A stretch of DNA of 27,250 nucleotides from Patescibacteria group bacterium (lineage in GTDB: Bacteria > Patescibacteriota > Patescibacteriia > Magasanikbacterales > GWA2-37-8), in assembly GCA_004321885.1 (NCBI GenBank), contig SCQK01000009.1:1-27250 (forward strand), in the 5' to 3' direction. The position numbers were made by a program, and so were the translations under genes. Under the pieces are notes generated by a model. The model saw only the letters and a list, made by a program, of their open reading frames with translations, was not told the DNA's origin and ran no database searches. Shown one piece after another: positions 6,899-27,234 of this stretch; position 1 is the first letter of the stretch; the number at the start of each line of letters is the position of its first letter.

Positions 6899-6921
6899 CC
6901 TCCCCCTTATCAAGAGGGAGG
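6899..6921 (+). repeat. family B hairpin element (CCTCCCCC-loop-GGGAGG) supplying the gatB RBS
   Basis: 'cctcccccttatcaagagggagg'. GGGAGG lies 12 nt upstream of the gatB ATG. Confidence 0.6.
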
Positions 6922-6932
6922 AAACAAATTGT

Positions 6933-8498
6933 ATGTCAAAATATATTCCCATCATCGGCCTGGAAATACACGTGGAGCTAAAAACCAAGAGCAAAATGTT
7001 TTGCTCCTGCGCCAACAACCCGGACCGCCCGCCTCGCCCGACGAGCGGGCTCGTCGAGGCGGGCGACGCCCCAAACACCAATGTCTGCGAAATCTGTCTG
7101 GCGCACCCGGGCACCTTGCCCGTGCCGAATAAAACCGCTATTGAATGGGCCGCCAAAATCGCCACTGCCCTGGGATGCAAGCTCAACAAAGAAAGTAAAT
7201 TTGACCGCAAGCATTATTTTTACCCCGACCTGCCCAAGGGCTACCAGATTTCCCAATTTGACCAGCCCATCGGCGAGCACGGCTTTATTGAACTCCAATT
7301 TCCAGTCGGCAAAAACCCGCGCGAAGCGGCGCGCATCGGTATCACTCGCGTGCATTTGGAAGAAGACACGGCAAAGTTGACCCACGGGGCGAAGGGAGAA
7401 ACTTTGGTTGACTTCAACCGCGCCGGCGTGCCCCTGGTGGAAATCGTATCCGAGCCCGACGTGCAAAGCGCCGTTGAAGCCAAGAGCTATTGCCAGGAAC
7501 TGCAAAATATTTTTCGCTATCTCGGCGTGAGCGACGCGGACATGGAAAAAGGCCACATGCGCTGTGAGGCCAACGTGTCGGTGCAGGAAGAAGGAAAATT
7601 TACAAACGACAAGGGCGTGATAAAACCGACAGGAAAAAACAAACTAAACGCCAAAGTTGAAGTGAAAAATATAAACTCTTTCCGCGCCGTGGAAAAAGCG
7701 ATTGAATTTGAAATCAAACGCCAGACCGCCATGATAGAAAAAGGCGAATCATGGAAACAGCAGACCCGCGGCTGGGATGACGACAAGGGCGAAACGATTT
7801 TACAAAGAGAAAAAGAAACCTCGGCCGATTACCGCTACTTCCCCGAGCCCGATATTCCACCGTTTAATCCGGTTAAAATCACCGGCGACATCTCTTTGCC
7901 CGAACTGCCGGCCGCCAAACGGTCTCGCTTCCGCGACGAGTATGGTTTTTCTTATTCCGACGCCGACATCTTGGCCAGCGACGCGCACTGGGCGGCTTTT
8001 ACCGAACAAGTGATGAGCGAACTCGTTGACTGGCTGAAAACTTTATCCAAAAAAGAATCTCCGGCGCAAATCGCGCGGCTGGCCGGCGGCTGGATTACTT
8101 CCAAACTGATGGGCGCCATGGCCGAACGCAAAATTGACATTCGTATTCTGAAATTAAAGCCGGAAAATTTCGCCGAACTGGTCGCTTTGATTTACACAAA
8201 CAAAGTCAACTCCACCAACGCGCAAAAAATTCTGGCCGAGATGCTGAACTCGGGCGTGGACATGGACCCCACGCATATAATGGAAGACAAGGGCTACGGC
8301 CAAATAGCCGACGAAGGCAAACTGGGCGAAGTGGTTGATGAAGTGCTCAAGAGCCACCCTGAACAAGTGGCGCAATTCAAAGCCGGCAAAGAACCGATTT
8401 TACAATTTCTAAAAGGCATGGTAATGAAAGCGACCGAGGGCTCGGCCGACCCGCAAATGGCGGAAAAATTGCTGCGGGAGAGAATTAAAATATCCTGA
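6933..8498 (+). CDS. gatB: aspartyl/glutamyl-tRNA(Asn/Gln) amidotransferase subunit B
   Basis: 'IGLEIHVELKTKSKMFCSC...NTNVCEICLAHPGTLPVPN...FDRKHYFYPDLPKGYQISQFDQPIGEHG' are typical GatB motifs. C-terminal YqeY-like tail. Contains a roughly 14-aa in-frame insertion encoded by a GC palindrome. Confidence 0.9.
   Translation: MSKYIPIIGLEIHVELKTKSKMFCSCANNPDRPPRPTSGLVEAGDAPNTNVCEICLAHPGTLPVPNKTAIEWAAKIATALGCKLNKESKFDRKHYFYPDLPKGYQISQFDQPIGEHGFIELQFPVGKNPREAARIGITRVHLEEDTAKLTHGAKGETLVDFNRAGVPLVEIVSEPDVQSAVEAKSYCQELQNIFRYLGVSDADMEKGHMRCEANVSVQEEGKFTNDKGVIKPTGKNKLNAKVEVKNINSFRAVEKAIEFEIKRQTAMIEKGESWKQQTRGWDDDKGETILQREKETSADYRYFPEPDIPPFNPVKITGDISLPELPAAKRSRFRDEYGFSYSDADILASDAHWAAFTEQVMSELVDWLKTLSKKESPAQIARLAGGWITSKLMGAMAERKIDIRILKLKPENFAELVALIYTNKVNSTNAQKILAEMLNSGVDMDPTHIMEDKGYGQIADEGKLGEVVDEVLKSHPEQVAQFKAGKEPILQFLKGMVMKATEGSADPQMAEKLLRERIKIS
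7026..7065 (+). repeat. 40-nt GC-rich near-perfect palindrome inserted in-frame in gatB
   Basis: 'cgcccgcctcg' and 'cgaggcgggcg' are perfect 11-bp arms. Inner 'cgacgag-cggg-ctcgtcg' hairpin. Encodes 'PDRPPRPTSGLVEAGDAP' between the conserved 'KMFCSC' and 'PNTNVC'. Confidence 0.7.
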
Positions 8499-8552
8499 AA
8501 CAAGGGGTTGCCCTGCGGGCAAAAGTTCAGGATAACATGTGGATAAGTCGCT

Positions 8553-8581
8553 TTGACCACCGCCTCACCTTCTGCTAAACT
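8553..8581 (+). promoter_or_regulatory. candidate sigma70 promoter for carAB-pyr (TTGACC, 17 nt, TAAACT)
   Basis: -35 at 8553-8558 and -10 at 8576-8581. About 155-nt structured leader before carA. Confidence 0.4.
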
Positions 8582-8636
8582 GTTATGGATATATGCACAG
8601 CCCCACTGAAAAACCAACGGTAAAAATTATAATCGG

Positions 8637-8662
8637 CCACCCGTAGAGGGTGGTCTTTTTTT
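8637..8662 (+). terminator. intrinsic terminator/attenuator in the carA leader: CCACCC-GTAGA-GGGTGG followed by TCTTTTTTT
   Basis: 6-bp GC stem plus T-tract, 80 nt upstream of the carA ATG. Followed by a 19-bp interrupted stem (8665-8727) and an 8-bp stem 'aatccgcc-tttg-ggcggatt' abutting the start codon. Confidence 0.55.
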
Positions 8663-8741
8663 GATAACTCTCGAAATTTTGGAGCCATAGGCGAACAAAA
8701 TTTCGCAAGAGTTATCAATCCGCCTTTGGCGGATTACATTT

Positions 8742-9893
8742 ATGTACCCAGCACGGTTAATTTTAAACACCGGCCAAGAATTTCTCGGCCTTTCACCCGC
8801 CTGGCAAAAAGGCGACTTTTACGGTTTACCCTCACACCAAAAATTTTGGTGTGAGGGCGAGGTTGTTTTTACGACCGGCATGACCGGCTATGTGGAAACT
8901 CTCACCGATCCTTCGTATGCCGGACAAATTATCGTCTTCACCTATCCGCTCATCGGCAACTACGCCGTGCCGCCGGCCAAATTCTGGGAATCGGAAAAAA
9001 TCCACGCGGCCGGAGTGGTGGTAGGCGAGGCGTGCCAGTGGCCTGATACCCCCTCCTCACCTCCCTCCCGAAACAAGTTCGGGACAGGCTCTTATAAAGG
9101 GGGAGGGACTTTGGCCGGATGGCTAAGAGAACAAAAGGTGCCTTTACTCACCGGGGTGGATACTCGCCTGCTTACCAAAACACTACGCGAGAAGGGTGCC
9201 ACGCCCGGAGCGATTACGTCTTACCCCTACCTAACCTCCCCCTTAAAAAGGGGGAGGAACAGGAGGGGGTATAATTTCTTTGACCCGAACGAAACAGATC
9301 TGGTGGCGCTGGTTTCTCCCAAAAGACCGACCACTTACGGCAAGGGGAAAAAGAGAATCATCGCCGTTGATTGCGGGATGAAAAAAAATCTGCTCCGCTC
9401 ACTCTTAAAATTACCGCTGACTATAAAAATCGTGCCGTACGACTACGATTATAACAAAGAAAAATTTGACGGCGTGTTTATCTCCAATGGCCCGGGCGAC
9501 CCGGAACGTTGCGGCCGAACGATAGAAATTCTGCGCCGCGCCATGAAAAAGAAAAAACCGATTTTCGGCGTCTGTCTGGGCAACCAGCTGTTAGCACTGG
9601 CGGCCGGAGCCAAAACCTACAAACTGCCCTTTGGCCACCGCGGACAAAATCAACCCTGCCAAGACAGCGCCACTGGCCGTTGTTATATCACCAGCCAAAA
9701 CCACGGCTACGCCGTGAACCCGGCCACCCTGCCGCCGGACTGGCGCGTGAGTTTCAAAAACTTAAACGACGATTCAGTGGAAGGCATCGGCCACAAATCA
9801 TTGCCGTTTTTCGCCGTGCAATTTCATCCCGAAGCGGCGCCCGGCCCCGCAGACACGCAGTGGCTTTTTGAAAAATTTTATGAAACTTTATAA
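8742..9893 (+). CDS. carA: carbamoyl-phosphate synthase small (glutaminase) subunit
   Basis: 'VVFTTGMTGYVETLTDPSYAGQIIVFTYPLIGNY', 'PIFGVCLGNQLLALAAGAKTYKLPFGHRGQNQP' (catalytic Cys), 'FAVQFHPEA'. Two in-frame family B element insertions. Confidence 0.9.
   Translation: MYPARLILNTGQEFLGLSPAWQKGDFYGLPSHQKFWCEGEVVFTTGMTGYVETLTDPSYAGQIIVFTYPLIGNYAVPPAKFWESEKIHAAGVVVGEACQWPDTPSSPPSRNKFGTGSYKGGGTLAGWLREQKVPLLTGVDTRLLTKTLREKGATPGAITSYPYLTSPLKRGRNRRGYNFFDPNETDLVALVSPKRPTTYGKGKKRIIAVDCGMKKNLLRSLLKLPLTIKIVPYDYDYNKEKFDGVFISNGPGDPERCGRTIEILRRAMKKKKPIFGVCLGNQLLALAAGAKTYKLPFGHRGQNQPCQDSATGRCYITSQNHGYAVNPATLPPDWRVSFKNLNDDSVEGIGHKSLPFFAVQFHPEAAPGPADTQWLFEKFYETL
9049..9108 (+). repeat. family B element (compound) in-frame in carA
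   Basis: 'cccctcctcacctccctcccgaaacaagttcgggacaggctcttataaagggggaggg' encodes 'PSSPPSRNKFGTGSYKGGG'. Contains inner hairpin TCCCGAA-acaag-TTCGGGA. Confidence 0.6.
9235..9272 (+). repeat. family B element in-frame in carA
   Basis: 'cctccccc-ttaaaaa-gggggagg-aacaggagggggtat' encodes 'SPLKRGRNRRGY'. Confidence 0.65.
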
Positions 9894-12800
9894 AGTTATA
9901 ATTCTCGGTTCCGGAGGATTGCAAATCGGCCAGGCCGGCGAGTTTGATTATTCGGGCTCCCAGGCCATCAAGGCCCTGAAAGAAGAAGGCATCAAAACCG
10001 TGCTGGTAAACCCCAACATCGCCACTGTTCAAACCGACCCAAACATGGCTGACGCGCTCTATCTTCAGCCGCTCAATTTTCAAACACTTAAAAAAATTAT
10101 CGCCAAAGAAAAACCGGACGGCATTTTGCTCGGCTTTGGCGGACAAACCGCGCTCAATCTGGGTTTGGAACTGGATGAAAAAGCCGTACTCCAAAAATAC
10201 GGCATGGCCGTGCTGGGTAGCGATACGCAAACAATACGAACAGCCGAAGACAGAAATTTATTCAAAATCGCGCTGGCGAAAATCGGAGTGAAGACTCCGA
10301 AAAGTTTTACCGCGCGCGACGTGAATGAAGCGCTGGCCGCGGGAAAACAAATCAGCTACCCCTTGATGATTCGCAGCGGCTTCTCTTTGGGCGGACTTGG
10401 TTCCGGAAAAATCGCCGACGCGCGGGAACTGAAACAACGCGCAGGCGAAGCGCTCTCCGGCGCCCCGCAAATCCTGGTGGAAGAATACCTGGGCGGCTGG
10501 AAAGAAGTGGAATACGAAGTGGTGCGCGACAGAAAAGACAACACCATTATTGTCTGCAACATGGAAAACATGGACCCGATGGGCATCCATACCGGTGAGA
10601 GCATCGTGGTGGCGCCTTCGCAGACCTTGAACAACGAACAGTATCATCGCCTGCGCGAGCTGTCCATCAAAATCGCCCGCCACCTGAAAATCATCGGCGA
10701 ATGCAACGTGCAATTCGCCTTGCACCCGAAAACCGGCGACTATCGCGTGATAGAACTCAACCCGCGCCTGTCGCGTTCATCGGCTCTGGCTTCCAAAGCC
10801 ACGGGCTATCCCCTGGCCTACATCGCGGCCAAGCTGGCCATCGGCAAACTTTTGCCTGAACTCAAAAATTCAGTCACCAAAAAAACCTCGGCCTTTTTTG
10901 AACCGGCCTTGGATTATCTGACAATAAAAATTCCGCGCTGGGACACAAACAAACTGCGCTCGGCCGAACGCTCCATCGGCTCGGAGATGAAAAGCGTGGG
11001 CGAAGTGATGGCCATTGGACGCTCGTTTCCCGAAGCATTGCAAAAAGCCGTGCGTATGCTGAATATCGGCGCCGACGGGCTAAGCGATTATCCGTTTCCC
11101 ATCGCCGAACCGAAAAAAGAAATGGAGAACGCCACCGACCGACGTTTGTTCGCGCTTTACCAATTTTTTAAAAAAGGCGGCGGCGTAAAAGAAGCCGGGC
11201 AACTTACGAGTATAAACGAATGGTTTCTGGCGCACATCAAAAACATCGCGGCGCTGGAAAAAACAATCAAAAATAAACGACTAACGCCAGCCCTGCTTTT
11301 ACAAGCCAAGCAATTCGGCTTTAGCGACGTCGGTCTGGCAAAATTAAAAAATACTGACGAGAAAAAAATCAGGCGCCTGCGCAAAAAAAACAAAATCCTG
11401 CCGTGCTTTAAACAAATAGACACCCTGGCCGGCGAATATCCGGCCGAGACGAATTATTTATACGCCACCTACCACGGCGCCGGACACGATATCGCCGCTT
11501 TGGACAAAAAACCGATCATCGTCCTCGGCTCTGGTCCGTACGCCATCGGTTCGTCGGTGGAATTTGACTGGTGCGCCGTGAACACGGCCCGCGCCCTGCG
11601 CGCCTTGGACAAAAAAACAATAATGCTCAACTCCAATCCGGAAACAGTCTCCACTGACTACGACGAATCCGACCGTTTGTATTTTGAAGAGCTGACTTTG
11701 GAGCGCGTGGCTGACATCGCTGATTTTGAAGGCGGCGCGAAGGCGTCTTTTGAATCTACACCCGGCATTGTTGTTTCGGTCGGCGGACAAATCGCCAATA
11801 AAATCGCTCTGCCGCTTTTTGAAATGGGTTATAAAATTTTAGGCACCCCGCCCGTGGCCATAGACCAGGCCGAAGACAGACAAAAATTTTCCTCACTCTT
11901 GAATAAATTAAAAATAGACCAGCCGGAATGGATTGAGTCGGGTAATTTGAGTAAAGCCAAGGCTTTCGCCAAAAATTTCGGGTATCCGGTCCTGGTGCGG
12001 CCGTCATACGTGCTCTCTGGCGCGGCCATGAACGTGTGCCCGAACGAAGATGAACTGACAAACTATCTACGTTCGGCTTCGGCCGTTTCTCCCGACCATC
12101 CGGTGGTTATTTCCAAATTTATCACCAATGCCAAAGAGTTAGACATAGACGGAGTGGCCGACAAGGGAAAAATTATAATAGAAGCGATTTGCGAACACGT
12201 GGAAAACGCGGGCGTGCACTCGGGCGACGCCACCCTGGTCTTGCCCCCGCAAAAACTTTATTTGGAAACGATTCGCCGCGCCAAAAACATCGCTCGCGCC
12301 ATCGCCAAATCACTCAAAATCACCGGGCCCTTTAACATCCAGTTCATTGCCAAGGATAACGCGCTCAAAGTGATAGAGTGCAACTTGCGCGCTTCCCGCT
12401 CTTTTCCTTTCGTATCCAAAGTGACCGGACATAATTTCATAGAACTGGCCACCAAGGCCATGCTGGGCGGTGTTGGAGTTCCTCCCCCTCTTAGGGGGAG
12501 GATAAAGGAGGGGGTATTTGAAACCCTGGAGCTCAACCACGTCGGCGTGAAGTCGCCGCAATTTTCTTACCACCGACTGAAAGGAGCCGACCCGGTGGCG
12601 CAAGTGGAAATGGCTTCCACCGGAGAGGTGGCCTGTATCGGCGGCGATTATTTGCGCGCCTTTTATTCTTCCTGGCTGGCCACGGGCAAAAATATCAGCC
12701 GCCGCCGGGCGCTTGTCACCATTGCCGATGAATGCAAACAAAAATTCTTGCCATTAGTGAAAAAAATGGACAAACAGGGCTGGGAAATATATACTACTGC

Positions 12801-13110
12801 CGGCACCCACGACTTTTTGTCGCGCCACGGAGTGGCCAGCAACTTTGTTTACAAAATCAGCGAGCAAAACAAGCCGAACGTGGAGGCAACGATTTCAGAA
12901 AAGCAAGTTGACGTAATCATTGTCATTCCGAGCGAAGCGAGGAATCTCTGTTTATCAAACGACAGCGACGGCTACAAAATTCGCCGGCTGGCCACGGACC
13001 GCCACATCCCACTTATCACCAACTCGCAAACCGCTATTTTGCTCTTGCGCTGTCTCACCGAACTTGACGCCAATAAAATGCCGATAAAATCGTGGCAAGA
13101 ATATTTTTAA
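9868..13110 (+). CDS. carB: carbamoyl-phosphate synthase large subunit
   Basis: 1080 aa. Two ATP-grasp halves ('[20 protein letters not shown]', '[20 protein letters not shown]') and a C-terminal MGS-like domain. Overlaps the carA 3' end by 26 nt. Confidence 0.95.
12481..12517 (+). repeat. family B element in-frame in carB
   Basis: 'cctccccc-tctta-gggggagg-ataaaggagggggtat' encodes '[13 protein letters not shown]'. Confidence 0.7.
12921..12946 (+). repeat. family A short hairpin element in-frame in carB
   Basis: 'tgtcattccgagcgaagcgaggaatc' encodes 'VIPSEARNL' in the MGS-like domain. Confidence 0.6.
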
Positions 13111-13191
13111 TGTCATTGCGAGGAGCGGAGCGACGAAGCAATCCCATACAATTAAGGGGATTGCCACGGCCCTGCGGGCCTCGCAATGACA
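13111..13191 (+). repeat. family A full-length palindromic element filling the carB-pyrB intergenic space
   Basis: Begins immediately after the carB TAA. Termini 'tgtcattgcgagg...cctcgcaatgaca' are 13-bp perfect inverted repeats. Inner hairpin 'gcaatccc...gggattgc'. Confidence 0.75.
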
Positions 13192-13199
13192 ATACAATT

Positions 13200-14120
13200 A
13201 TGCCAAACACACTCAAAGGCAGGGACATAATTTCCATCGCGGAACTTTCCAAGCCGGAAATTCTGCTGGTGCTAAAAAACGCGCAAGAATTAAAAAAACA
13301 CCCGCGCCCGAAACTGCTGGAAGGGCTGGTGATGGGCAGTTGTTTTTTTGAACCCAGCACGCGCACGCGCTTGTCGTTTGAAACAGCCATGCAGAAGTTG
13401 GGCGGACGGGTAATCGGCTTTGCCGACCCGGGCGTGACTTCGGCCAAGAAAGGCGAGTCGCTGTACGACGCCATAAAAATCATCGGCCAATACGTGGATG
13501 TCATCGCCATGCGCCATCCGTTGGAGGGAGCGGCGCGACGCGCGGCCGAGGCCACGGACAAACCAATCATCAACGGCGGCGACGGAGCCAACCAGCACCC
13601 CACCCAAACCCTGCTGGACTTGTTCACTATTCAAGAATGCCAGAAAAAATTAAGCAACCTTCATATCGCCATGGTCGGCGACCTGAAATATGGCCGCACC
13701 GTGCACTCGCTGGCCCAGGCGCTTACCCATTTTGGCGCCCGCCTGTATTTCGTGGCGCCCGACAGCTTGCAGATGCCCGCGTATATTTGCGATGAATTAA
13801 AAACCAAAGGCGTCAAATTCTCCATGCACAAAAAAATGGAAGAGGTAATCGGCAAAGTTGATATTTTTTACATGACCCGCATCCAGGGCGAACGTTTTGC
13901 CGACCCGATGGAGTACGAAAAAGTAAAAAACAGTTTCGTGCTCAAGGCCGACATGCTAAAAAACGCCAAACCAAACCTGAAAATCTTGCACCCCTTGCCG
14001 CGCGTGAACGAAATTGAAACAGCCATAGACAAAACAAAATTCGCCTACTATTTCCAGCAAGCGGAAAACGGGCTCTATGCCCGCCAGGCCCTGCTGGCGA
14101 TGGTGTTGGGAAAAATTTAA
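13200..14120 (+). CDS. pyrB: aspartate carbamoyltransferase catalytic subunit
   Basis: '[11 protein letters not shown]', 'HPTQTLLDL' and 'LHPLPR' motifs. Start taken at 'MPNTLKGRD' (ATG 13200), just after the element. The ORF-track 13092 start reads through the palindrome. Confidence 0.9.
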
Positions 14121-14123
14121 TAA

Positions 14124-14208
14124 TGTCATTGCGAGGCCCAAGGGGCCGAAGCAATCTCAGACAAGTAAGGGATTGCCACGTCGGCCTGCAGGCCTCCTCG
14201 CAATGACA
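14124..14208 (+). repeat. family A full-length palindromic element filling the pyrB-pyrI intergenic space
   Basis: 'tgtcattgcgagg...cctcctcgcaatgaca'. Same architecture as 13111-13191, with a different centre. Confidence 0.75.
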
Positions 14209-14216
14209 AAAATTTT

Positions 14217-14681: not shown

Positions 14682-14690
14682 AAACACCAT

Positions 14691-15857
14691 ATGAGCCGGC
14701 TCATAACTTTACCCGCTTTGATTGACCCGCACGTGCATTTTCGTACCCCGGGTTCCGAGCACAAAGAGGATTGGATTTGCGGAGCGCGCGCCGCCTTCGC
14801 CGGCGGATACACCACGGTGATTGACATGCCGAACAACAACCCGCCGGCGATTGATGAAGAGTCATTGAATAACAAAATCAAGCTCGTGGAACAACAACTG
14901 TCATTCCTGCGAAAGCAGGAAGGGAGCCCTTCGGGCTCGGAATTCATTTCTGTCCACCCATATTTTTATCTCGGGGTTACTCCCCTCCCCCTTGATAAGG
15001 GGGAGGCAGGGTGGGGGTCGGCGGTAGCCCTCAAAATGTTCATGGGTTCCAGCACCGGCAGTTTGCTGGTGGACAAATACGAAGACCAGGAAAAAATATT
15101 CGCCAAAGCCGCTGAACTTGATTTGCTGGTGGCAGTGCACGCAGAAGATGATGAAACAATAAAAAATAATCAACTGTCATTCCAGCAAAAGCTGGAATCC
15201 ATCGCCAATCCAGTCGCTCTTCACTCGCAAATCCGCTCGCGTGAGGCGGCGATAAAAGCCGTGTCGCAAGCGATTGAACTGGCGGAAAAGACCGGCGCGC
15301 GATTATATATCTGCCATATTAGCACAAAGGAAGAAGCTGAATTGGTTAAATCGGCTAAAGAGCGCGGAGCCAAAATTTATGCCGAAGTCACACCGCATCA
15401 TTTGTTTCTGAACGAAAGCGCGTATGAAACATTGGAGACAAAAGCGCAAATGAATCCGCCTCTGCGCACGGCCGCGGACCAAGCGGCGCTCTGGCAGGCG
15501 ATAAACGACGGAGTAATAGACACCATCGGCACCGACCACGCTCCGCATACTTTGGAAGAAAAAAATCAACCATACCCCAAATCGCCTTCGGGCGTGCCCG
15601 GCATTGAGACATGTTTGCCGCTATTGCTCAACGCGTACAATCAGGGTAAAATCAGTTTAGAGAAAATAGTGGAATTATGCCGGACAAATCCGCAAAAAAT
15701 ATTCCGTTTGCCTGATAACAGTGACGAGGTGATTGTGGATTTGGATTTGGAAAAAGAGGTAAAAAATGAGAATTTAAAAACTAAATGCGGCTGGTCGCCC
15801 TTTGCTGGGTGGAATCTAAAGGGGTGGCCGATAAAAACGATAATTATGAAAAAGTAA
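14691..15857 (+). CDS. pyrC: dihydroorotase
   Basis: 'LIDPHVHFRTPG' metal-binding motif, 'GTDHAPH'. Contains three in-frame element insertions. The stop codon lies inside the left terminal repeat of a MITE-like element. Confidence 0.85.
   Translation: MSRLITLPALIDPHVHFRTPGSEHKEDWICGARAAFAGGYTTVIDMPNNNPPAIDEESLNNKIKLVEQQLSFLRKQEGSPSGSEFISVHPYFYLGVTPLPLDKGEAGWGSAVALKMFMGSSTGSLLVDKYEDQEKIFAKAAELDLLVAVHAEDDETIKNNQLSFQQKLESIANPVALHSQIRSREAAIKAVSQAIELAEKTGARLYICHISTKEEAELVKSAKERGAKIYAEVTPHHLFLNESAYETLETKAQMNPPLRTAADQAALWQAINDGVIDTIGTDHAPHTLEEKNQPYPKSPSGVPGIETCLPLLLNAYNQGKISLEKIVELCRTNPQKIFRLPDNSDEVIVDLDLEKEVKNENLKTKCGWSPFAGWNLKGWPIKTIIMKK
14899..14921 (+). repeat. family A short hairpin in-frame in pyrC
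   Basis: 'tgtcattcctgcgaaagcaggaa' is TTCCTGC-GAAA-GCAGGAA. Encodes 'SFLRKQE'. Followed by a small hairpin 'gagccc-ttc-gggctc'. Confidence 0.7.
14982..15018 (+). repeat. family B element in-frame in pyrC
   Basis: 'cccctccccc-ttgataa-gggggagg-cagggtgggggt' encodes 'PLPLDKGEAGWG'. Confidence 0.7.
15175..15198 (+). repeat. family A short hairpin in-frame in pyrC
   Basis: 'tgtcattccagcaaaagctggaat' is ATTCCAGC-AAAA-GCTGGAAT. Encodes 'LSFQQKLE'. Confidence 0.7.
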
Positions 15858-16028: not shown

Positions 16029-16982
16029 ATGAAACATCTAATCTCCCTAAAGGAACAAACAAAAGAAGACCTGCTGGAAATTTTGGATTTAGCAAAAAAA
16101 GTTAAAGCCACATACAAGGCCGGTGAGACGATGGAGCCATTAAAAAACAAAACCCTGCTCATGCTTTTTCAAAAAAGCTCCACGCGCACGCGCCTGTCGT
16201 TTGAGGCCGGCATAACCGAACTGGGCGGACACGCCATTTTTCTGGACAGCCGCGCCACGCAATTTTCGCTCACTGATTTCGGCGATGAAATAAAAGCCGT
16301 AATGCGCTTTGGCGACATCCTGATGTTTCGGGCCATGAAAGCGGCGGACGTGGAAAAGGCGGCGGGCTTCAATCAGATTCCGGTGATAGACGGTTGCAGT
16401 GAAAAATATCACCCGTGCCAGGCCTTGGGAGACATTTTGACAATGAGTGAGCATGCCAATGGACTGGAAAACGTGAAAAAAATCACTTGGCTGGGAATTG
16501 AAAACAACGTCTCTAACACCCTGACGCTGGCCGGCGCCAAACTGGGAATTGAAGTGACCATCGCCGCGCCCGAAGCCAACCCGGCCAGCGTGGACGCGGA
16601 GTTAAACGCCCAGGCCTCTGCCGTCGGCAAAGTGACACGCACTTTGAATTTGGCCGAAGCGCTGGCTGGCGCGAATTTCATCCACACCGACACCTGGATG
16701 GATATGGAATTTTTTTCCGACGGAAAAGTGAAGCCGCAATTTGAAGCCGAATACGAACGGCGCAAACGGGTGTTCACGCCTTTTCAACTAAACGCGGGCT
16801 TAATAAACACCCACGCCCCGCAAGCGAAAATTATGCACTGCATGCCGTGTCATGTGGGCTATGAAATTTCACGCGACGCCATAGACCATCCCAATTCAAT
16901 AATTTTTGACCAGGCGGAAAATCGCAAACACATCCAAAAAGCGATTATTCTTTGGCTACTTGGTATTCCCTCCCCTTTATAA
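16029..16982 (+). CDS. ornithine-carbamoyltransferase-family transcarbamylase paralog (substrate uncertain)
   Basis: 'STRTRLSFE', 'HPCQALGDILT', 'HCMPC' (OTC HCLP-type) and a C-terminal 'SIIFDQAENRKH' closely like OTCase. The ornithine-binding 'DxxxSMG' is 'DTWMDME'. Confidence 0.75.
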   Translation: MKHLISLKEQTKEDLLEILDLAKKVKATYKAGETMEPLKNKTLLMLFQKSSTRTRLSFEAGITELGGHAIFLDSRATQFSLTDFGDEIKAVMRFGDILMFRAMKAADVEKAAGFNQIPVIDGCSEKYHPCQALGDILTMSEHANGLENVKKITWLGIENNVSNTLTLAGAKLGIEVTIAAPEANPASVDAELNAQASAVGKVTRTLNLAEALAGANFIHTDTWMDMEFFSDGKVKPQFEAEYERRKRVFTPFQLNAGLINTHAPQAKIMHCMPCHVGYEISRDAIDHPNSIIFDQAENRKHIQKAIILWLLGIPSPL

Positions 16983-17004
16983 GGGGAGGGTTAGGGTGGG
17001 GTAT
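16968..17004 (+). repeat. family B element spanning the OTC-paralog stop and the pyrD RBS
   Basis: 'ccctcccc-tttataa-ggggaggg-ttagggtggggtat'. The TAA stop of the upstream gene is inside the hairpin loop. GGGTGGGG lies 5 nt before the pyrD ATG. Confidence 0.7.
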
Positions 17005-17921: not shown

Positions 17922-18067
17922 CCCCCTCCCCTATTTGCGAAAAGAGTGAGAGAAAAAGCAAACTTGTTGCTTTTTCCGAACGAATGAGCAAATATCCGCA
18001 GATATTAGGGGAGGGATAAACCCCGTTAGAGGTCTGCAGACCTCTAACGGGGTAAAGGGTGGGGTTA
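17922..18067 (+). repeat. compound family B region in the pyrD-pyrK intergenic space
   Basis: 'cccctcccc' (17922) pairs with 'ggggaggg' (18008) across a 70-nt insert that contains AAAAAGCAA-acttg-TTGCTTTTT. This is followed by a perfect hairpin 'ccccgttagaggtctgcagacctctaacgggg' (18021-18052). A 'taaagggtggggtt' SD-like tail precedes the pyrK ATG. Confidence 0.6.
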
Positions 18068-18945: not shown

Positions 18946-18961
18946 GTCCAAAGCCAATTAT

Positions 18962-19006
18962 AAAAAAAGAAAAAGCTCTCATTCCGTGCGATGACGAAAC
19001 GAGAGC
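18962..19006 (-). terminator. rho-independent terminator for the - strand GC-rich gene
   Basis: - strand: GCTCTCGTTTCG-loop-CGGAATGAGAGC (imperfect 11-bp stem) followed by TTTTTCTTTTTTT. Confidence 0.5.
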
Positions 19007-19082
19007 GAAACGAACCGAGGGACCAAGTGACCCAAGCCCTTCCGATTTGGCGAAAGGGCTGAGGCACCAAGGATCCCAGGGC

Positions 19083-19730
19083 CTACTTGCCGCGAGGAAG
19101 GAGATAGGAGGCGCCGAAGCCGTAGACAACCCAGCGGACGTCCAGCACCCAGCGAGCGCCGACCCAGGAGAGACAGGCCACGTAGAGGCCGCCACGCCGG
19201 CCGCGCAAAAGCGTGCCCGGCAGGACGATGATCTTGTCCTGCATCTCCTTCGGGATCTCGGCCTGGCACTCCAGCATACGCTTGCCATCCACCAGGCCGT
19301 AGTTGGCCTTGAGGACGACGGCGCGGGCGCGCATGACCTCGCCGTTGACATAGCCCGGGTCATCGGGCTCGAGGAAGGACACATACTCCAAGTCCTTCAC
19401 CTCGAACTGCGACGGGGCCACATCCTCCACCACCTCCCACTTGCGCTTCTTGCCTGCCTCGTCCTCGTACTCGGGGATGAGGTCGGCGGCGAGCAACTCG
19501 GACGGGAGCTGGTCGCGCTTGATCGATGCCGCCACGCTTTCGCCGTTTTCCTCGCCGATCGGCTCCAGCTTCAGCCGGAGCTTGCCGGCGCGAAACAGCT
19601 CCACGTTCTGCGCGCCCGTCTCACATCCGCCGAACTCCGCCCACAGCTTGAGGATCATGGCCCAGATCTGCTTCCCTGTCAGACCCTCCAGCACGGCCTC
19701 CAGTGTCTTCCCTTCCACTCTCGAACTCAT
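19083..19730 (-). CDS. hypothetical protein in a GC-rich (about 62% GC) inserted segment
   Basis: ATG with AAGGAG 7 nt upstream. Balanced E/K/D/L composition, unlike the Ala/Arg/Leu-rich overlapping frames. Terminator downstream. Interrupts pyrK...pyrE. Confidence 0.5.
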   Translation of the reverse strand: MSSRVEGKTLEAVLEGLTGKQIWAMILKLWAEFGGCETGAQNVELFRAGKLRLKLEPIGEENGESVAASIKRDQLPSELLAADLIPEYEDEAGKKRKWEVVEDVAPSQFEVKDLEYVSFLEPDDPGYVNGEVMRARAVVLKANYGLVDGKRMLECQAEIPKEMQDKIIVLPGTLLRGRRGGLYVACLSWVGARWVLDVRWVVYGFGASYLLPRGK

Positions 19731-19895
19731 GGCTGTTCTCCTTTCCGGCGCCTCGCCAGAATGGCAATTTGCCCCGCCCCGGGGCTCGGGTTTTTATGCT
19801 AAAAATAACAAAGAGCTAACAGCGATTTATATCACAACATTACTGCTTCTGTCAAGCTAAACACCGTCACAACCGCCATATCCTTTCACAAACCC

Positions 19896-19928
19896 TTGCG
19901 CGATTATCTGCGCGATTCTTGCGCGATT
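19896..19928 (+). promoter_or_regulatory. three direct repeats of TGCGCGATT (11-12 bp spacing) just upstream of the fic -10
   Basis: 'ttgcgcgatt' 19896, 'ctgcgcgatt' 19908, 'ttgcgcgatt' 19919. Operator- or iteron-like. Confidence 0.5.
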
Positions 19929-19938
19929 TAATTTTTTA

Positions 19939-19947
19939 TGGTATGAT
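19939..19947 (+). promoter_or_regulatory. extended -10 promoter TGGTATGAT for fic-pyrE-pyrF
   Basis: TGnTATGAT 29 nt upstream of the fic ATG. Same box type as 'TGGTATAAT' at 6712-6720. Confidence 0.45.
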
Positions 19948-19975
19948 ATTGGCAAGGAATTCTTCGGCCTAAACT

Positions 19976-21031: not shown

Positions 21032-21037
21032 TTTTTT

Positions 21038-21634: not shown

Positions 21635-21640
21635 CAAATA

Positions 21641-21754
21641 CCCCTCCCCCACCCTCCCCTTATAAAGGGGAGGGTGCAATTTTCCTCCCCCTTTATAAGG
21701 GGGAGGCTCGCCACCACACCAAATGCTTTGGTGTGGTGGCGAGGAGGGGGTAAA
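21641..21754 (+). repeat. two tandem family B hairpins plus a 14-bp perfect hairpin and SD tail in the pyrE-pyrF spacer
   Basis: 'ccctcccc-ttataaa-ggggaggg', 'cctccccc-tttataa-gggggagg', 'ctcgccaccacacc-aaatgcttt-ggtgtggtggcgag' (21707-21743), then 'gagggggtaaaaatt' before ATG. Confidence 0.7.
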
Positions 21755-21758
21755 AATT

Positions 21759-22520: not shown

Positions 22521-23085
22521 TCCTCTGCAGGGCTTCTTTAAGCAACTGCTCGCTGGTTTTACCGTTAGCGTCCAGCTTTTTCACCGCCTCGCGCGCTTCC
22601 TGCGTAGAATAGCCCAACGCTATCAACCCGTCAACCACATCTCCCAATAAACCGCCCTCACTCGTTTCTTCGGCCAGCGCGCCCGCGGCCATTTTCTCTT
22701 TGAGTTCCACCACGATTCTCTCGGCGGTCTTTCGGCCGATGCCGCTTACTTTGGTAAGGTAATCAACATCGCCGCGGCTCACCGCTGAAGCGATTTCATC
22801 AACTGTTCCCAAAGACAGCAAGTGCATGGCGGTTTTCGGCCCAATGCCGCTCACGTTCAAAAACTTCAAAAACAAAGCCCGTTCGCCCTCGTTTTGAAAT
22901 CCGAACAAATCCATCGCGTTTTCGCGCACGGCCAAATAAGTAAAAACTTCCGTTTCCACGCCGACAGGCCACTTCTTCGCCGCTCCCGAATTAACAAACA
23001 AAACATACCCCACCCCGCCCGAGGTCATGAGCGTAATTTCATTACCGCTATTTTTCATTATTTTCCCGCGCAAAATTGAAATCAT
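22513..23085 (-). CDS. ruvA: Holliday junction branch-migration complex subunit RuvA
   Basis: 'MISILRGKI...GGVGYVLFV' OB domain, two HhH '[14 protein letters not shown]' and '[14 protein letters not shown]', C-terminal domain III. Overlaps the pyrF 3' end by 8 nt (convergent). Confidence 0.85.
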
Positions 23086-23121
23086 AAAAAATTAATAACC
23101 AAAAAATCTTAATTAGCAAAC

Positions 23122-24156: not shown

Positions 24157-24164
24157 ACGTTTAA

Positions 24165-24250
24165 ACCCCCTCCTCTGTCCTCCACCTAAAAGGGGGAGAA
24201 AAGTGACAGTGTTACCCCTCCCTCGCCCTCCCCTTATAAAGGGGAGGGAA
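24165..24250 (+). repeat. compound family B element in the nif3-hypothetical spacer
   Basis: 'cccccctcctctgtcctccacctaaaagggggag...cccctccctcgccctcccc-ttataaa-ggggaggg'. Confidence 0.6.
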
Positions 24251-24252
24251 CT

Positions 24253-25215: not shown

Positions 25216-25233
25216 AATATGTACCTAACTTTT

Positions 25234-25270
25234 CTCTCCCCTTTATAAGGGGAGAGACAGAGAGGGGTAA
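25234..25270 (+). repeat. family B element upstream of nif3
   Basis: 'ctctcccc-tttataa-ggggagag-acagagaggggtaat'. Confidence 0.65.
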
Positions 25271-25313
25271 TTTAAAAATTATAATGCTTCAATATTATGT
25301 CAAACCGACGGGC

Positions 25314-25342
25314 TTGTCAAACCGGTGCCGGCCTGATATACT
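25314..25342 (+). promoter_or_regulatory. sigma70-like promoter TTGTCA, 17 nt, TATACT
   Basis: -35 at 25314-25319 and -10 at 25337-25342. Drives the small acidic ORF or RNA ending at the 25533 terminator. Confidence 0.5.
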
Positions 25343-25391
25343 ACACCATACTTTTCCCGCACCACTGCGGGTGAAAAATATATCTCTCAAA

Positions 25392-25520
25392 TATGTTGGA
25401 GAATATAAACACATTCGAAGACGACGAAGAAAATTTGGATAGCGAAGAGGAGGAAGAGGTGGATGGCGTCCCGAAACCTGGCAGTGATGAGGATGCGGAT
25501 GACGACGAAGACAGCATGTA
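25392..25520 (+). CDS. small (42 aa) extremely acidic ORF 'MLENINTFEDDEENLDSEEEEEVDGVPKPGSDEDADDDEDSM'
   Basis: Promoter upstream and intrinsic terminator downstream. No clear SD, so it could instead be a small RNA. Confidence 0.3.
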
Positions 25521-25523
25521 ATT

Positions 25524-25559
25524 AAAAAGAATCCCCGCCTTGGGCGGGGTTCTTTTTTT
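25524..25559. terminator. bidirectional intrinsic terminator CCCCGCC-ttg-GGCGGGG flanked by A-tract and T-tract
   Basis: 'aaaaagaatccccgccttgggcggggttcttttttt'. Serves the convergent small ORF (+) and efp (-). Confidence 0.7.
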
Positions 25560-26118
25560 ACGCTCTGGTGGAGTATTCGCCCGTTTCGGTATTTACCAGA
25601 ATCTCTTCGCCTTCTTTTATGAATATCGGGGCCTGAATTTTTAATCCGTTTTCCAAAGTGATTTCTTTGGTGACGTTGCCCGAAGCGCTGTCGCCCTTGA
25701 CCGCCGGCGGCGCGTCAATCACCTTGTATTGAATCTTTTTCGGTATCTGCGCGGAAACCGGCCGGCCCTCGTACAGCCCCACGACCACGTCTATCCCTTC
25801 TTTCAGATACTTGGCCTCGTCGCCGAGCAAATCGTTGTTCATCTCTATCTGCTCATAGGTGCTCATGTTCATGAAAGCGAAATTGGCGCCGCTTTTGTAC
25901 AAATACTGCATAGAATGAAACTCCACCTCCACGATATCCACGCTTTCGCTGGTTTTGTAGGTTATTTCAATCACCTTGCCCGAGGCCAAACTTTTCATCC
26001 GCACGCGCACAAAAGCCGCGCCCTTGCCAGGGTTGACGTGCTGAAAATCCACCACGACAAACAAATCATTCTGGTGCCTGATGACTACCCCTTTTCTGAT
26101 TTCGCTGGTAGGGGCCAT
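25558..26118 (-). CDS. efp: translation elongation factor P
   Basis: 'VDFQHVNPGKGAAFVRVRMK' (modifiable Lys in the PGKG loop). Three OB/KOW-like domains. 186 aa. Confidence 0.9.
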   Translation of the reverse strand: MAPTSEIRKGVVIRHQNDLFVVVDFQHVNPGKGAAFVRVRMKSLASGKVIEITYKTSESVDIVEVEFHSMQYLYKSGANFAFMNMSTYEQIEMNNDLLGDEAKYLKEGIDVVVGLYEGRPVSAQIPKKIQYKVIDAPPAVKGDSASGNVTKEITLENGLKIQAPIFIKEGEEILVNTETGEYSTRA

Positions 26119-26130
26119 AAAAAAACTCTA

Positions 26131-26241
26131 AATGTCAAAATCCAAATTTCCAATATCAAATCAATTTTTAATGTCAAATTTCAAATGTCCAATTTGACAT
26201 TTGGATTTTTGTCATTGATTTGACATTGGAAATTTGACATT
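26131..26241. repeat. array of 9-11-nt 'TTTGACATT' repeats: three in - orientation, then three or four in + orientation
   Basis: 'aatgtcaaa' at 26131, 26170 and 26184 (variant). 'tttgacatt' at 26193, 26218 and 26233. 'tttgtcatt' at 26207. Near-palindromic centre 'aaatgtccaatttgacattt'. Lies in the efp upstream region and runs into the epmA 3' end. Confidence 0.7.
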
Positions 26242-27234
26242 AATATTCTCTATTTGGTCTTTCACGCTTTGAAACATTACCTCGTTTATATCCCTGGCTC
26301 CGGTAAACAATAATACCATGCGGTCAACCCCCAAGGCAATACCGGCCATGTCTTGGCGCGCTGCCTCGGGCAAGCCGGCAATCGCGGCGATAAAATCCGG
26401 GTCAACGCCCCAAACCGGCTTGCCCGCCCCCAGCCGCTTGTTTTTGTCTTCCTCCAAACGCTTTTTTTGCTCGGCCGCGTCGGTCAGTTCGCCAAAGGCG
26501 TTGGCCAATTCCAAACCGCCAATATACAATTCAAACCTCTCGGCGTAACGTTGGTCATGTTCGCACAAACGATTGAGCGAGGTCATCTGCTGGGGATAAT
26601 CATACACAAAAACCGGCCACTCGGCGCCCAGCTTTGGTTCTATTTCATTCAAAAAAATCTTAAAAAACAAATCTTCATAGGCGTCGCGCGGGTCCGCGGC
26701 GAAACCGCGCGCCAAAACCAGCTCGCGCATTTTTTCCAGCTCCAAATATTCATCCAAATTCACGCCAAGATATTTTTGCCACACTTCTTTCATGCTTAGC
26801 CGGTCCCAAACCCCCTCCTTTATTCTCCCCCTTGGGAGAGGAAGTTGAGAAGCAACAAACTTAAACAAATTTTCCGTGTCGTCCATTATCTCGGTCAGGG
26901 TTCCGGGGGCGCGGTACCACTCAATCATGGTAAATTCGGTGTTGTGCGTGCGGCCAAACTCTTCGTAGTCGCGAAAAACCTTGCCAATTTCAAAAATTTT
27001 TTCATAACCCGCAGCCAACAATTTTTTCAAGCCGTATTCGGGCGAAGTGCGCAGATAAAATTGTTCGGTCACGCCGTTTGGAGCGTGGAAAACCGCTGAC
27101 ACCGGGTTCAAATACGGCTCCTGGCTGGCCAAACGCACAGCCACGGGCGTGTCGGTCTCCACAAAACCCGCGCGCCAAAAAAATTCCCGGATTAACTTTA
27201 TTATCTGAATTCGCGCGTCATATATCCCGCGCAA
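26212..27234 (-). CDS. epmA: EF-P lysine beta-lysyltransferase (class II lysyl-tRNA-synthetase-like, GenX/PoxA)
   Basis: 'TSPEYGLKKLLAAGYEKIFEIGKVFRDYEEFGRTHNTEFTMIEWYRA' (class II motifs 1 and 2), 'GVDRMVLL'. Directly upstream of efp. Contains an in-frame family B element. The last roughly 13 aa are encoded by the repeat array. Confidence 0.8.
   Translation of the reverse strand: MRGIYDARIQIIKLIREFFWRAGFVETDTPVAVRLASQEPYLNPVSAVFHAPNGVTEQFYLRTSPEYGLKKLLAAGYEKIFEIGKVFRDYEEFGRTHNTEFTMIEWYRAPGTLTEIMDDTENLFKFVASQLPLPRGRIKEGVWDRLSMKEVWQKYLGVNLDEYLELEKMRELVLARGFAADPRDAYEDLFFKIFLNEIEPKLGAEWPVFVYDYPQQMTSLNRLCEHDQRYAERFELYIGGLELANAFGELTDAAEQKKRLEEDKNKRLGAGKPVWGVDPDFIAAIAGLPEAARQDMAGIALGVDRMVLLFTGARDINEVMFQSVKDQIENINVKFPMSNQ
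26808..26846 (-). repeat. family B element in-frame in epmA (- orientation)
   Basis: - strand 'cctctccc-aag-ggggagaa-taaaggagggggt' encodes '[13 protein letters not shown]'. Same tail as the carB copy. Confidence 0.7.

Follow-up and report, generated by a model that had tools for sequence, protein, structure and literature searches.

For the BoxC/PIT/TMECO repeats of bacteria, about 30 years of study (since 1992) have, to our knowledge, brought to light no function, origin or mobilising agent. These repeats are G/C-rich class II intrastrand triplex motifs (Bergler 1992, the BoxC reference in PMC4666352; Hoyne and Maher 2000; Holder et al. 2015, PMC4666352), and the class is defined by a three-stem anatomy with mirror symmetry (PMC4666352). 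TMECO follows the pattern CCCTCNCCC-N3-6-GGGNGAGGG-N3-GGGNGAGGG with TTA as the second loop, forms palindromic doublets, is lost and gained between E. coli strains and has been reported as always intergenic in that species (PMC4666352). The TMECO single strand forms a triplex in vitro, as seen by CD and NMR; Holder et al. reported no triplex in vivo and no link to mobile elements, found small deletions and changes centred on TMECO, and cited earlier work in which neither promoter nor terminator activity was detected (PMC4666352).

Anatomy and abundance of the repeat

The 27-kb stretch of Patescibacteria (CPR) DNA analysed here (the window, 27,250 nucleotides in all) carries 13 loci of one repeat, called TM below, where chance would give 0.09. 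A three-stem motif detector returned 13 matches, compared with a mean of 0.09 and a maximum of 1 in 200 dinucleotide-preserving shuffles, and C/G hairpins alone gave 25 strand-wise matches against 1.6 in shuffles. The loci are:

6886..6921, minus strand: TM upstream of gatB and antisense to it; on the plus strand, C arm TACCCCCACCC and then hairpin CCTCCCCC-TTATCAA-GAGGGAGG, whose G stem stops 11 nt short of the gatB ATG (6933)
9047..9107, minus strand: antisense TM covering carA codons 102-122; some 22 nt of other sequence sit nested between one stem and loop 1
9222..9271, no strand assigned: palindromic double TM in carA, codons 161-177 (C arm, hairpin, G arm)
12478..12515, plus strand: TM in carB, codons 871-883, CCTCCCCC-TCTTA-GGGGGAGG-ATAAA-GGAGGGGG
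14981..15018, plus strand: TM in pyrC, codons 97-110, with zero net length change
16966..17003, plus strand: TM that makes up the whole argF-pyrD junction; third stem GGGTGGGG stops 4 nt short of the pyrD ATG (17006)
17922..18065, plus strand: composite TM filling the pyrD-pyrK spacer; the C stem is 17922-17931, loop 1 holds an insert of about 76 nt, the G stem is 18008-18015, loop 2 contains a nested hairpin (18019-18053), and the third stem (18057-18065) stops 7-8 nt short of the pyrK ATG (18073)
21639..21674, minus strand: TM immediately 3' of the pyrE stop codon, antisense
21682..21752, plus strand: TM with hairpin proper 21684-21706, a nested hairpin (21707-21743) in loop 2, and third stem GAGGGGGTA (21744-21752) ending 6-8 nt before the pyrF ATG (21759)
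24165..24200, minus strand: degenerate TM; third stem GGAGGGGG stops 9 nt short of the orf23122 ATG (24156)
24213..24248, minus strand: TM immediately 3' of the stop codon (24253) of a NIF3-family gene
25232..25269, plus strand: variant TM with all three stems altered together, antisense to both adjoining genes
26810..26844, minus strand: degenerate TM in epmA, codons 129-141

A preliminary description of this DNA had claimed a dispersed repeat family of at least 11 copies; the family is real, its positions are those listed (21639-21752 as a single stretch), and the motif lies far above what composition predicts. The unit is about 35-40 bases long (range 33-50 nt) and runs from a C-rich stem through a loop to a G-rich stem; a second, short loop, often reading TTA, then leads to the third stem, again G-rich. 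Stems in the window are 8 nt (CCCTCCCC or CCTCCCCC), and loop 1 is A/T-rich. As in the BoxC/PIT/TM class, a C/T-rich stem and its complementary G/A-rich stem enclose a loop of 3-7 nt, and the third stem, placed after a short second loop, mirrors the G stem of the hairpin, with G opposite G and A or T opposite A. This symmetry is kept in about 11 copies, and the third stem co-varies with the hairpin: in the copy at 25232, all three stems have changed, to TCTCTCCCC / GGGGAGAGA / AGAGAGGGG. The loops and linker (TTTATAA, TTA) are also conserved among copies. TM units occur, in addition, as palindromic doublets or with other hairpins nested in their loops, and copies in the window lie nested within one another. 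The G-rich arm, which had been read as a Shine-Dalgarno (SD) motif added to a hairpin in a new kind of element, is instead the third stem of the published intrastrand-triplex motif. Because purine-motif triplexes do not form in RNA (PMC4666352), the conserved symmetry is a property of the DNA.

We regard the TM family as probably being this Patescibacteria lineage's version of the widespread BoxC/PIT/TMECO repeat, a dispersed DNA for which a DUF559 endonuclease is the candidate agent. Common to both are the C-rich stem, its G-rich complement, the mirror G-rich third stem and the short second loop often reading TTA, as well as palindromic doublets, many dispersed copies, gain and loss at strain level, and a spread that takes in proteobacteria and cyanobacteria. 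A 20-base pattern matched more than 120 genome stretches across phyla, with strong conservation at the unfixed positions, and window 16966-17003 is identical at 38 of 38 positions to copies in Nostoc genomes. On the other hand, the window repeats differ from TMECO in their A/T-rich loop 1, in their CPR host and in five copies that lie in frame inside essential genes (carA, carB, pyrC and epmA), so that the exclusively intergenic location seen in E. coli does not hold here. The literal TMECO pattern was not matched in the window, the published stems being 9 nt and those of the window 8 nt, which makes TM a variant of the G/C-rich class rather than a strict TMECO.

Copies inside genes and between genes

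All five in-gene copies (two in carA, one each in carB, pyrC and epmA) are in frame and free of stop codons. The earlier claim that each adds about 12 amino acids applies to four of the five, which are net insertions of 9-14 aa. Compared with 16 homologues, the copy at 9047..9107 lengthens the protein by 14 aa, and compared with strain L001 (about 88% identical) it amounts to 42 nt of extra DNA; that at 9222..9271 adds 33 nt (11 aa) relative to the same strain, the carB copy adds 9-10 aa relative to 12 homologues, and the epmA copy adds 10 aa relative to EpmA of E. coli and Salmonella. The inserts of carA and carB are missing from more distant homologues as well. The pyrC copy brings no net gain: the element-encoded TPLPLDKGEAGWGSAV aligns without gaps to a segment of conserved length in 16 homologues, and the copy is therefore a replacement, not an insertion. 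An AF2 (AlphaFold) model of CarA (pTM 0.82) shows low-confidence coil mainly at the three inserts, with pLDDT <50 at residues 102-120 (the 9047..9107 insert) and 164-175 (the 9222..9271 insert); the carA inserts are thus predicted to fall in disordered loops, in agreement with the surface-loop location expected for them. In a second CPR lineage (Minisyncoccia, L098), a palindromic copy lies in frame in mnmA.

The resemblance to the Rickettsia RPEs proposed in the preliminary description is borne out as behaviour, namely one dispersed family with copies in frame inside essential genes. Both kinds of element are palindromic, translated, located in tolerant loops and devoid of coding capacity of their own, and carA, carB and epmA hold in-frame palindromic repeats where homologues lack the segment, pyrC being a replacement. 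RPEs are about 100-150 bp long and are not known outside Rickettsia and relatives, nor are they known to be of the triplex type. The window TM, unlike RPEs, includes copies that replace resident sequence and has no known sequence relationship to them, and its triplex-type unit of 33-50 nt sets it apart from the RPE families by length and type.

Between genes, the short operon gaps of the window are largely made of TM elements. Loop 1 of 16966..17003 contains the argF stop codon (TAA, 16980-16982), which accounts for the stop codon previously seen in the loop of one copy. The TMs at 21639..21674 and 21682..21752 form one large palindrome, since the C arm of the former pairs with the G arm at 21744-21752, and the layout of the latter is that of DUF559-flanking copies in other genomes. 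Orientation had been said to follow that of the host gene; about 9 of 14 copies behave in this way, and those at 6886, 9047, 21639, 25232 and half of 9222-9271 do not.

Strain turnover and the DUF559 association

Strain L001 lacks both carA copies of the window (42 and 33 nt) and has a 33-nt copy of its own in gatB; individual copies are thus present or absent between close strains, having been gained and lost. No clear target-site duplication was seen at insertion junctions in the comparison with L001, where those junctions are too diverged for duplications to be either recognised or dismissed. Both the pyrC copy and the second carA copy replace resident sequence rather than being simple insertions, and such replacement without a clear target-site duplication agrees more closely with patch repair or gene conversion than with transposition of the cut-and-paste kind. 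Like MITEs (Correia/NEMIS, ERIC and similar), TM repeats are short, non-coding, located beside genes and able to supply expression signals, but they show no visible signature of terminal inverted repeat plus target-site duplication and have no known parent insertion sequence.

Among loci selected by the motif, the repeat brackets DUF559 genes in Hoeflea, Devosia, a Nitrospirales genome and Scytonema. In a set selected by protein instead (75 non-identical metagenome loci), 39/67 loci have a TM upstream on the same strand, 42/70 have one downstream and inverted, and 52/62 have at least one of the two, compared with 47/1048 background windows (4.5%; Fisher p = 4e-30), an association that pertains to one DUF559 subfamily, since the query proteins came from motif-selected loci. 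In E. coli, the end of the DUF559 gene ycjD falls within a BoxC-like hairpin whose loop holds the stop codon of the gene. This locus lies upstream of fabI (envM), presumably the site of the first BoxC description. Strains of E. coli with ycjD have a median of 19 matching places, compared with 5 in ycjD-negative B2-type strains (about fourfold), and ycjD-negative O157-type strains still have about 13; because this correlation follows phylogroups, no more than two or three of the contrasts in it are independent. A DUF559 profile matches the catalytic domain of the homing endonuclease I-Bth0305I (PDB 3r3p). No DUF559 gene was found in the 27-kb window, the sole match there (6.9 bits) being dismissed, and our literature search returned no paper linking repeats of the BoxC/PIT/TMECO class to DUF559 genes.

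The nearest parallel is with REP/REPIN repeats, which, as TM does, occur as short palindromes in singlets and inverted doublets (for TM, window 21639-21752 and loci L016 and L020). In REP-RAYT and TM-DUF559 alike, a small, usually single-copy gene of nuclease type is bracketed by inverted repeats whose sequence varies between gene copies (e.g. loci L173, L150 and L183 for DUF559). The REP-associated gene encodes an HUH/Y1 transposase (RAYT), whereas the TM-associated gene encodes a PD-(D/E)XK endonuclease, and REPs, unlike TM, are extragenic and have no mirror third stem. Membership of REP/REPIN-RAYT is rejected on the ground that the gene bracketed in other genomes is DUF559 (PF04480), not RAYT. 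Because the DUF559 gene is surrounded by TM repeats in other phyla as RAYT genes are flanked by REP, we infer that a DUF559 (Vsr-like PD-(D/E)XK) endonuclease is the best candidate for the agent spreading the repeat. It may even be, and we put this forward tentatively as a real possibility, that BoxC/PIT/TM are the cognate repeats of a DUF559 subfamily that includes E. coli YcjD and is related to I-Bth0305I, forming a second system of repeat and domesticated nuclease beside REP/REPIN-RAYT that in CPR bacteria would go so far as to write short peptides into essential enzymes.

How the repeat may spread and what it means

In the mechanism we propose, TM, with its unit of about 35 nt (C/T stem, A/T-rich loop, complementary G/A stem, loop of 1-5 nt, mirror third stem), would be dispersed DNA gained and lost between strains through a DNA-level process, with a DUF559 endonuclease as candidate mobilising agent in parallel to RAYT for REP. 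Copies would land, or be patched in, between and inside genes, and in genes only stop-free copies that keep the frame and lie in tolerant surface loops would survive, to be translated as peptides rich first in Pro/Leu and then in Gly/Arg. Where the single-stranded third stem lies 4-9 nt before a start codon, it may act as an SD.

This last point touches the reading originally given to the family, a functional translation module in which hairpin and SD provide operon ribosome-binding sites and, inside genes, mRNA pause or regulatory signals. We consider it unlikely, although the G arm does end 4-9 nt before the starts of pyrD, pyrK, pyrF and orf23122, the RNA hairpin (-16 to -20 kcal/mol on folding) does leave the third stem single-stranded, and in DUF559 units elsewhere the same arm directly precedes the DUF559 start codon. 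The claim that copies sit where a ribosome-binding site is needed is doubtful, as most genes of the window lack an SD, and at least 11 start behind nothing but an A/T-rich leader (AATTTT-ATG type). Of the copies themselves, five run antisense to the local gene or lie distant from any start codon, and GGGTGGGG, present in two of the four "RBS" copies, makes a poor SD that mismatches the CCUCC anti-SD. The conserved feature, moreover, is a mirror symmetry proper to DNA triplexes and inapplicable to RNA, no sign of promoter or terminator activity came out of the work that Holder et al. cite (PMC4666352), and the spacers appear to have been built from the element rather than to have required one. 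An SD role is thus possible for about four copies, those before pyrD, pyrK, pyrF and orf23122 being the only ones to qualify, and it is not the reason for the existence of the family.

An account without a dedicated enzyme is somewhat unlikely in our estimation. It holds that the repeat spreads and decays through host replication and repair, with other copies serving as patch templates when stalling, a template switch or the repair of a break occurs at the triplex or hairpin, a route of the kind Holder et al. proposed for genomic instability (PMC4666352), and that DUF559 genes merely accumulate in, or home into, unstable repeat clusters. The replacements in pyrC and at the second carA site with no visible target duplication, the nesting of copies, the small changes and deletions centred on TMECO (PMC4666352) and the roughly 13 places kept by ycjD-negative O157-type strains all agree with it; it leaves unexplained why 84% of the DUF559 subfamily genes are flanked by the motif across phyla against the 4.5% background, and why the number of places is about four times lower in ycjD-negative B2-type strains. 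Common origin itself could be disputed, given that the stems are low in complexity, that four G tracts could form a G-quadruplex and that few sequences are possible for anything capable of forming a triplex. That the copies are compositional or convergent by-products (low-complexity C/G runs, potential G-quadruplexes) is nevertheless very improbable in view of the 13 matches against 0.09 in shuffles, the conserved loops and linker, the 38/38 identity with Nostoc copies and the clean 33-nt presence or absence between strains, and the shuffle counts and strain comparison refute it for the window.

Earlier accounts of the BoxC/PIT/TMECO class placed it strictly between genes and saw no connection with mobile elements. 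In the window, this class has spread into the coding sequence of essential enzymes of a reduced CPR genome, and its copies come and go among close strains, which makes it a source of variation in protein length and a trap for the annotation and alignment of CPR proteins. The DUF559 association points to a specific candidate enzyme, one open to testing in E. coli; if this link is true, a very large "domain of unknown function" family would gain a function, and the genomic instability reported around TM motifs would also be explained.

Family B as a repeat of the BoxC / PIT / TMECO class

Family B, a repeat of three stems (a C-rich stem, a loop, a G stem, a short loop, and a G-rich third stem, the G arm), is a real and striking repeat family, although the class of which it is a member, BoxC / PIT / TMECO, was already described. 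The preliminary description had reported a GC hairpin joined to a Shine-Dalgarno (SD) element in at least 11 copies, and a repeat was indeed recovered at every place named there, both by repeat finding and by direct reading. A detector specifying a C/T stem of 7-9 nt, a loop of 3-9 nt, the reverse-complement stem, a loop of 1-6 nt, and a third stem that mirrors the G stem gave 13 hits in the window versus a mean of 0.09 and a maximum of 1 in 200 dinucleotide-preserving shuffles, and C/G hairpins alone numbered 25 versus 1.6 in shuffles. With palindrome by-products removed and three composite copies added by eye, the final count is 13 loci; taking the double element at 9222-9271 as two gives 14 units. 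The simple unit is ~35 nt long (for example, 16966-17003: CCCTCCCC-TTTATAA-GGGGAGGG-TTA-GGGTGGGG-TA), and the arm previously called SD mirrors the G stem (GGGGAGGG with GGGTGGGG, GGGGGAGG with GGAGGGGG); in the copy at 25232, all three stems are changed jointly (TCTCTCCCC / GGGGAGAGA / AGAGAGGGG). Palindromic doublets with the C arm on the left and the G arm on the right also occur (9222-9271; 21639-21752), and some units carry hairpins nested in loop 1 or loop 2 (9047-9107, 17922-18065, 21682-21752).

Searched with one genome per species, a 20-base pattern matched at least 120 stretches. Those listed span cyanobacteria, alpha-, beta-, gamma-, and deltaproteobacteria, Nitrospirota, and Chloroflexota, as well as Acidobacteriota, Bacteroidota, Actinomycetota, Omnitrophota, and several CPR lineages, and among them the positions left free by the pattern are strongly conserved. 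Several Nostoc copies are identical at 38/38 positions to window 16966-17003. Small dispersed repeats in Nostoc were reportedly described by Elhai et al. in 2008. At E <= 1, Rfam yielded four weak matches across the whole window, all far under the gathering scores and none covering the element as an RNA family, and a full-text literature search with the element sequence returned nothing relevant. The location of a match within a long open frame, used as a proxy for coding location in the 120 motif loci, was uninformative in GC-rich genomes. The identification came through E. coli ycjD and BoxC, a lead provided by the neighboring genes of the motif loci: the same kind of motif lies upstream of E. 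coli fabI, with a median of 19 matches to it per E. coli genome. Holder et al. (2015; PMC4666352) describe exactly this class and give its successive names as BoxC (with the envM paper, Bergler 1992, as reference), PIT element, and TMECO. They report a triplex formed from a single strand in vitro and not detected in vivo, no purine-motif triplexes in RNA, and the absence of promoter or terminator activity in earlier work; copies in E. coli K-12 are "always located intergenically" without association with mobile elements, and they link the motif to strain differences caused by local instability of the genome. A G-quadruplex reading of the four G tracts was set aside in favor of this published triplex characterization. 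The 8-nt stems of the window depart from the literal TMECO pattern, which makes family B a variant within the class.

Copies between and within genes

The window is the full 27,250-bp contig from a metagenome-assembled "Patescibacteria group bacterium" genome (NCBI). A tRNA scan of the window found zero genes ("argF" below is a label for an ornithine carbamoyltransferase-type gene).

Plus strand: SNF2 helicase/methyltransferase, gatB, carA, carB, pyrB, pyrI, pyrC, argF, pyrD, pyrK, Fic gene, pyrE, pyrF
Minus strand: sigma factor, ruvA, orf23122 (unknown ORF), NIF3-family gene, efp, epmA

In phmmer comparisons, human mitochondrial CPS1 outscores E. coli CarA/CarB as a match for CarA and for the C-terminal part of CarB (8742-13110; CarA E-values of 8e-80 for human CPS1 versus 9e-67 for E. 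coli CarA). About 1 kb of the pyrK-Fic interval (19000-19950) has 59% GC versus ~50% elsewhere and long open frames on both strands, and matched nothing in Pfam, Rfam, or the tRNA scan. Between efp and epmA (26119-26260), TGTCAAA / TTTGACA units in direct and inverted orientation make up an A/T-rich array that is unrelated to family B and may represent operator or promoter architecture. Downstream of the element at 25232 lies a small, very acidic ORF of ~42 aa (MLENINTFEDDEENLDSEEEEEVDG...; 25394-25522, plus strand), on the strand opposite to its neighbors and followed by a terminator-like hairpin and T run.

The third stem ends 4-9 nt 5' of the start codons of pyrD, pyrK, pyrF, and orf23122, and at gatB the hairpin G stem is the upstream part, 11 nt off the start. 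The SD interpretation is nevertheless mostly incidental, because the arm is a mirror of the G stem and at least 11 genes of the window, with leaders of the AATTTT-ATG type, are devoid of SD-like sequence. The spacers holding these copies are almost wholly element, and element-free junctions measure only 6-9 nt (pyrI-pyrC, Fic-pyrE). In the simplest reading, elements would have been inserted between tightly packed genes, and copies with a G-rich arm beside a start codon would be tolerated or mildly useful; SD use would be plausible for copies with GGAGGGGG and a weak proposition for those with GGGTGGGG. The idea that orientation follows the host gene did not hold as a rule either, the sense orientation being found in ~9 of 14 units. 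Read by eye, the consensus unit has two of three frames open in sense and one of three in antisense, which can account for this mild bias.

Alignment of carA with 16 homologs revealed three inserts, the second and third being family B copies (+14 and +11 aa) and the first (aa 28-38) belonging to another palindrome family. All three (33, 42, and 33 nt) are missing from the contig of a related strain (L001, found in SRR22388050, ~88% nucleotide identity), and because more distant homologs also lack them, they are gains in the lineage of the window. The gatB gene of L001, in turn, holds its own 33-nt family B copy, which is missing from gatB of the window. The copy in carB adds 9-10 aa relative to 12 homologs; for that in epmA, the gain is 10 aa over the E. 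coli and Salmonella proteins of solved structure. The pyrC copy, on the other hand, aligns gap-free with 16 homologs, in which this segment has a conserved length, and thus replaced resident codons without insertion, so that the proposed addition of about 12 aa by each copy is right in kind for carA, carB, and epmA but not for pyrC. The second carA copy (9222-9271) is 50 nt long, with a net gain of 33 and ~17 nt displaced relative to L001. No target-site duplication was seen at the carA and gatB junctions compared with L001, the flanks being too diverged to judge. The lack of a visible duplication, together with two copies that are replacements, fits break-and-patch repair at least as well as transposition. 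In an AlphaFold model of CarA (pTM 0.82), low-confidence coil falls mainly at the three inserts (residues 25-34, 102-120, and 164-175), although low confidence is partly expected there because inserts lack support in the alignment. In a second lineage, a Minisyncoccia genome, a palindromic copy lies in frame in mnmA. Without exception, in-gene copies of all repeat families of the window keep the frame and contain no stop codon, which argues that they are translated rather than bypassed. The likeness drawn to Rickettsia palindromic elements is apt for behavior but not for membership. Two hairpin-containing blocks of the gatB-carA spacer, 8494-8534 (41 nt) and 8663-8750 (~88 nt), are missing from L001, indicating that intergenic repeats turn over between strains too.

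Other palindromes share the window with family B.

13108-13200, 14121-14210, 18426-18476: second palindromic family, TGTCATTGCGAGG, variable hairpin, GAAGCAATCC; often inverted doublets
14894-14925, 15170-15201, 18613-18644: third family, TGTCATTCCTGCGAAAGCAGGAATCCA; two in-frame copies in pyrC, one in pyrK (SVIPAKAGIH)
8826-8858 and 21707-21743: fourth palindrome type, CACACCAAA...TTTGGTGTG
~7020-7065 (gatB codons ~30-46): GC-rich palindrome, CGCCCGCCTCG...CGAGGCGGGCG, encoding DRPPRPTSGLVEAGDA within the cysteine-rich N-terminal region of GatB

The second family makes up the carB-pyrB and pyrB-pyrI spacers, with an in-frame occurrence in pyrK (LSVIARSVATKQS); loci of Chloroflexus, deltaproteobacteria, and Komeilibacteria (L054, L067, L085) contain similar sequences. 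The third adds 11 and 7 aa to pyrC relative to 16 homologs, and near-identical units are present in viral contigs as well as at loci of Dehalococcoidia and Nitrospirales. The fourth type forms a 33-nt in-frame carA insert at 8826-8858 (LPSHQKFWCE), missing from L001, and a longer relative (21707-21743) sits within loop 2 of the element next to pyrF. The palindrome in gatB is probably another in-frame insert. The Pfam match to the GatB_N domain implies ~37 extra residues across it.

Association with DUF559 endonuclease genes

When the ORFs of the 120 listed motif-selected loci were clustered by family, one small family was found to abut the motif in four phylogenetically distant genomes (those of Hoeflea, Devosia, Scytonema, and a member of the Nitrospirales), and a degraded fifth copy was also present. 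Pfam places the family in DUF559 (PF04480; E-values of 1e-29 to 1e-32), a Vsr-like endonuclease family. Profile comparison of DUF559 gave a match to PDB 3hrl and a weak one to the catalytic domain of the homing endonuclease I-Bth0305I. In order, the parts of such a locus are a hairpin, a G arm, 0-25 nt, the start codon, the DUF559 gene with its stop codon, a C arm, and another hairpin. To remove motif-selection bias, we turned to protein-selected loci (80 metagenome loci, 75 non-identical), where the motif occurred on the same strand within 160 nt upstream in 39/67 and inverted within 220 nt downstream in 42/70. One or both of these arrangements were present at 52/62 DUF559 loci versus 47/1048 background windows of the same loci (Fisher p = 4e-30), an association that holds for one subfamily because the seed proteins came from motif-selected loci. 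The opposite orientations were enriched too (29/67 and 29/70), so DUF559 genes sit among doublets. Loop 2 at these loci is bimodal in length (1-3 nt or 12-36 nt), and the long class holds a nested hairpin, as in the pyrF and pyrK copies of the window. The flanking repeat varies between loci. In one locus, on metagenome contig Ga0136846_1221116 (L183), the gene lies between inverted copies of an unrelated palindrome (…GGGACCGCCGGCGTCCCGCCGGCC…), and different DUF559 genes may thus pair with different repeat families.

The 27-kb window contains no DUF559 gene. A decayed one beside the copy at 25232 was considered and dismissed, the sole match (6.9 bits, 22 residues) lying in an alternative frame of the small acidic ORF. 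In viral contigs, where the motif was found in 83 stretches and DUF559 in 15 loci, no evidence of a phage vector was seen. In E. coli K-12, the last codons and stop of ycjD, a DUF559 gene, lie inside a BoxC-like hairpin. The interval between ycjD and fabI (L202; NC_000913.3, ~1351040-1351410) next holds a degenerate copy of the 3' end of ycjD (ETVLENI...) and, after it, a full BoxC/TMECO unit, an arrangement that suggests repeated insertion or replacement of the DUF559 gene at that site. A 2026 paper reports ycjD from E. coli phylogroups A, B1, and C, with eefRABCD in its place in B2 and other groups. ST69 and ST182 carry ycjD within groups that otherwise lack it. Across 60 evenly spaced E. 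coli records, ycjD-positive genomes (n = 37) had 12-27 matching places (median 19), ycjD-negative O157-type genomes (n = 7) had 12-14, and ycjD-negative B2-type genomes (n = 15) had 2-9 (median 5). This contrast, which is confounded by phylogeny, fits the remark of Holder et al. (PMC4666352) on 29 motifs in strain 55989 versus one in IHE3034. The literature search found no paper tying DUF559 or ycjD to these repeats. DUF559 proteins may be agents of motif spread, may target the motifs without spreading them, or may be no more than common neighbors of them.

Relative to the literature found, the new elements are a CPR host for this repeat class, the in-frame colonization of essential genes with strain-to-strain turnover, and an association across phyla with DUF559 endonuclease genes of one subfamily.
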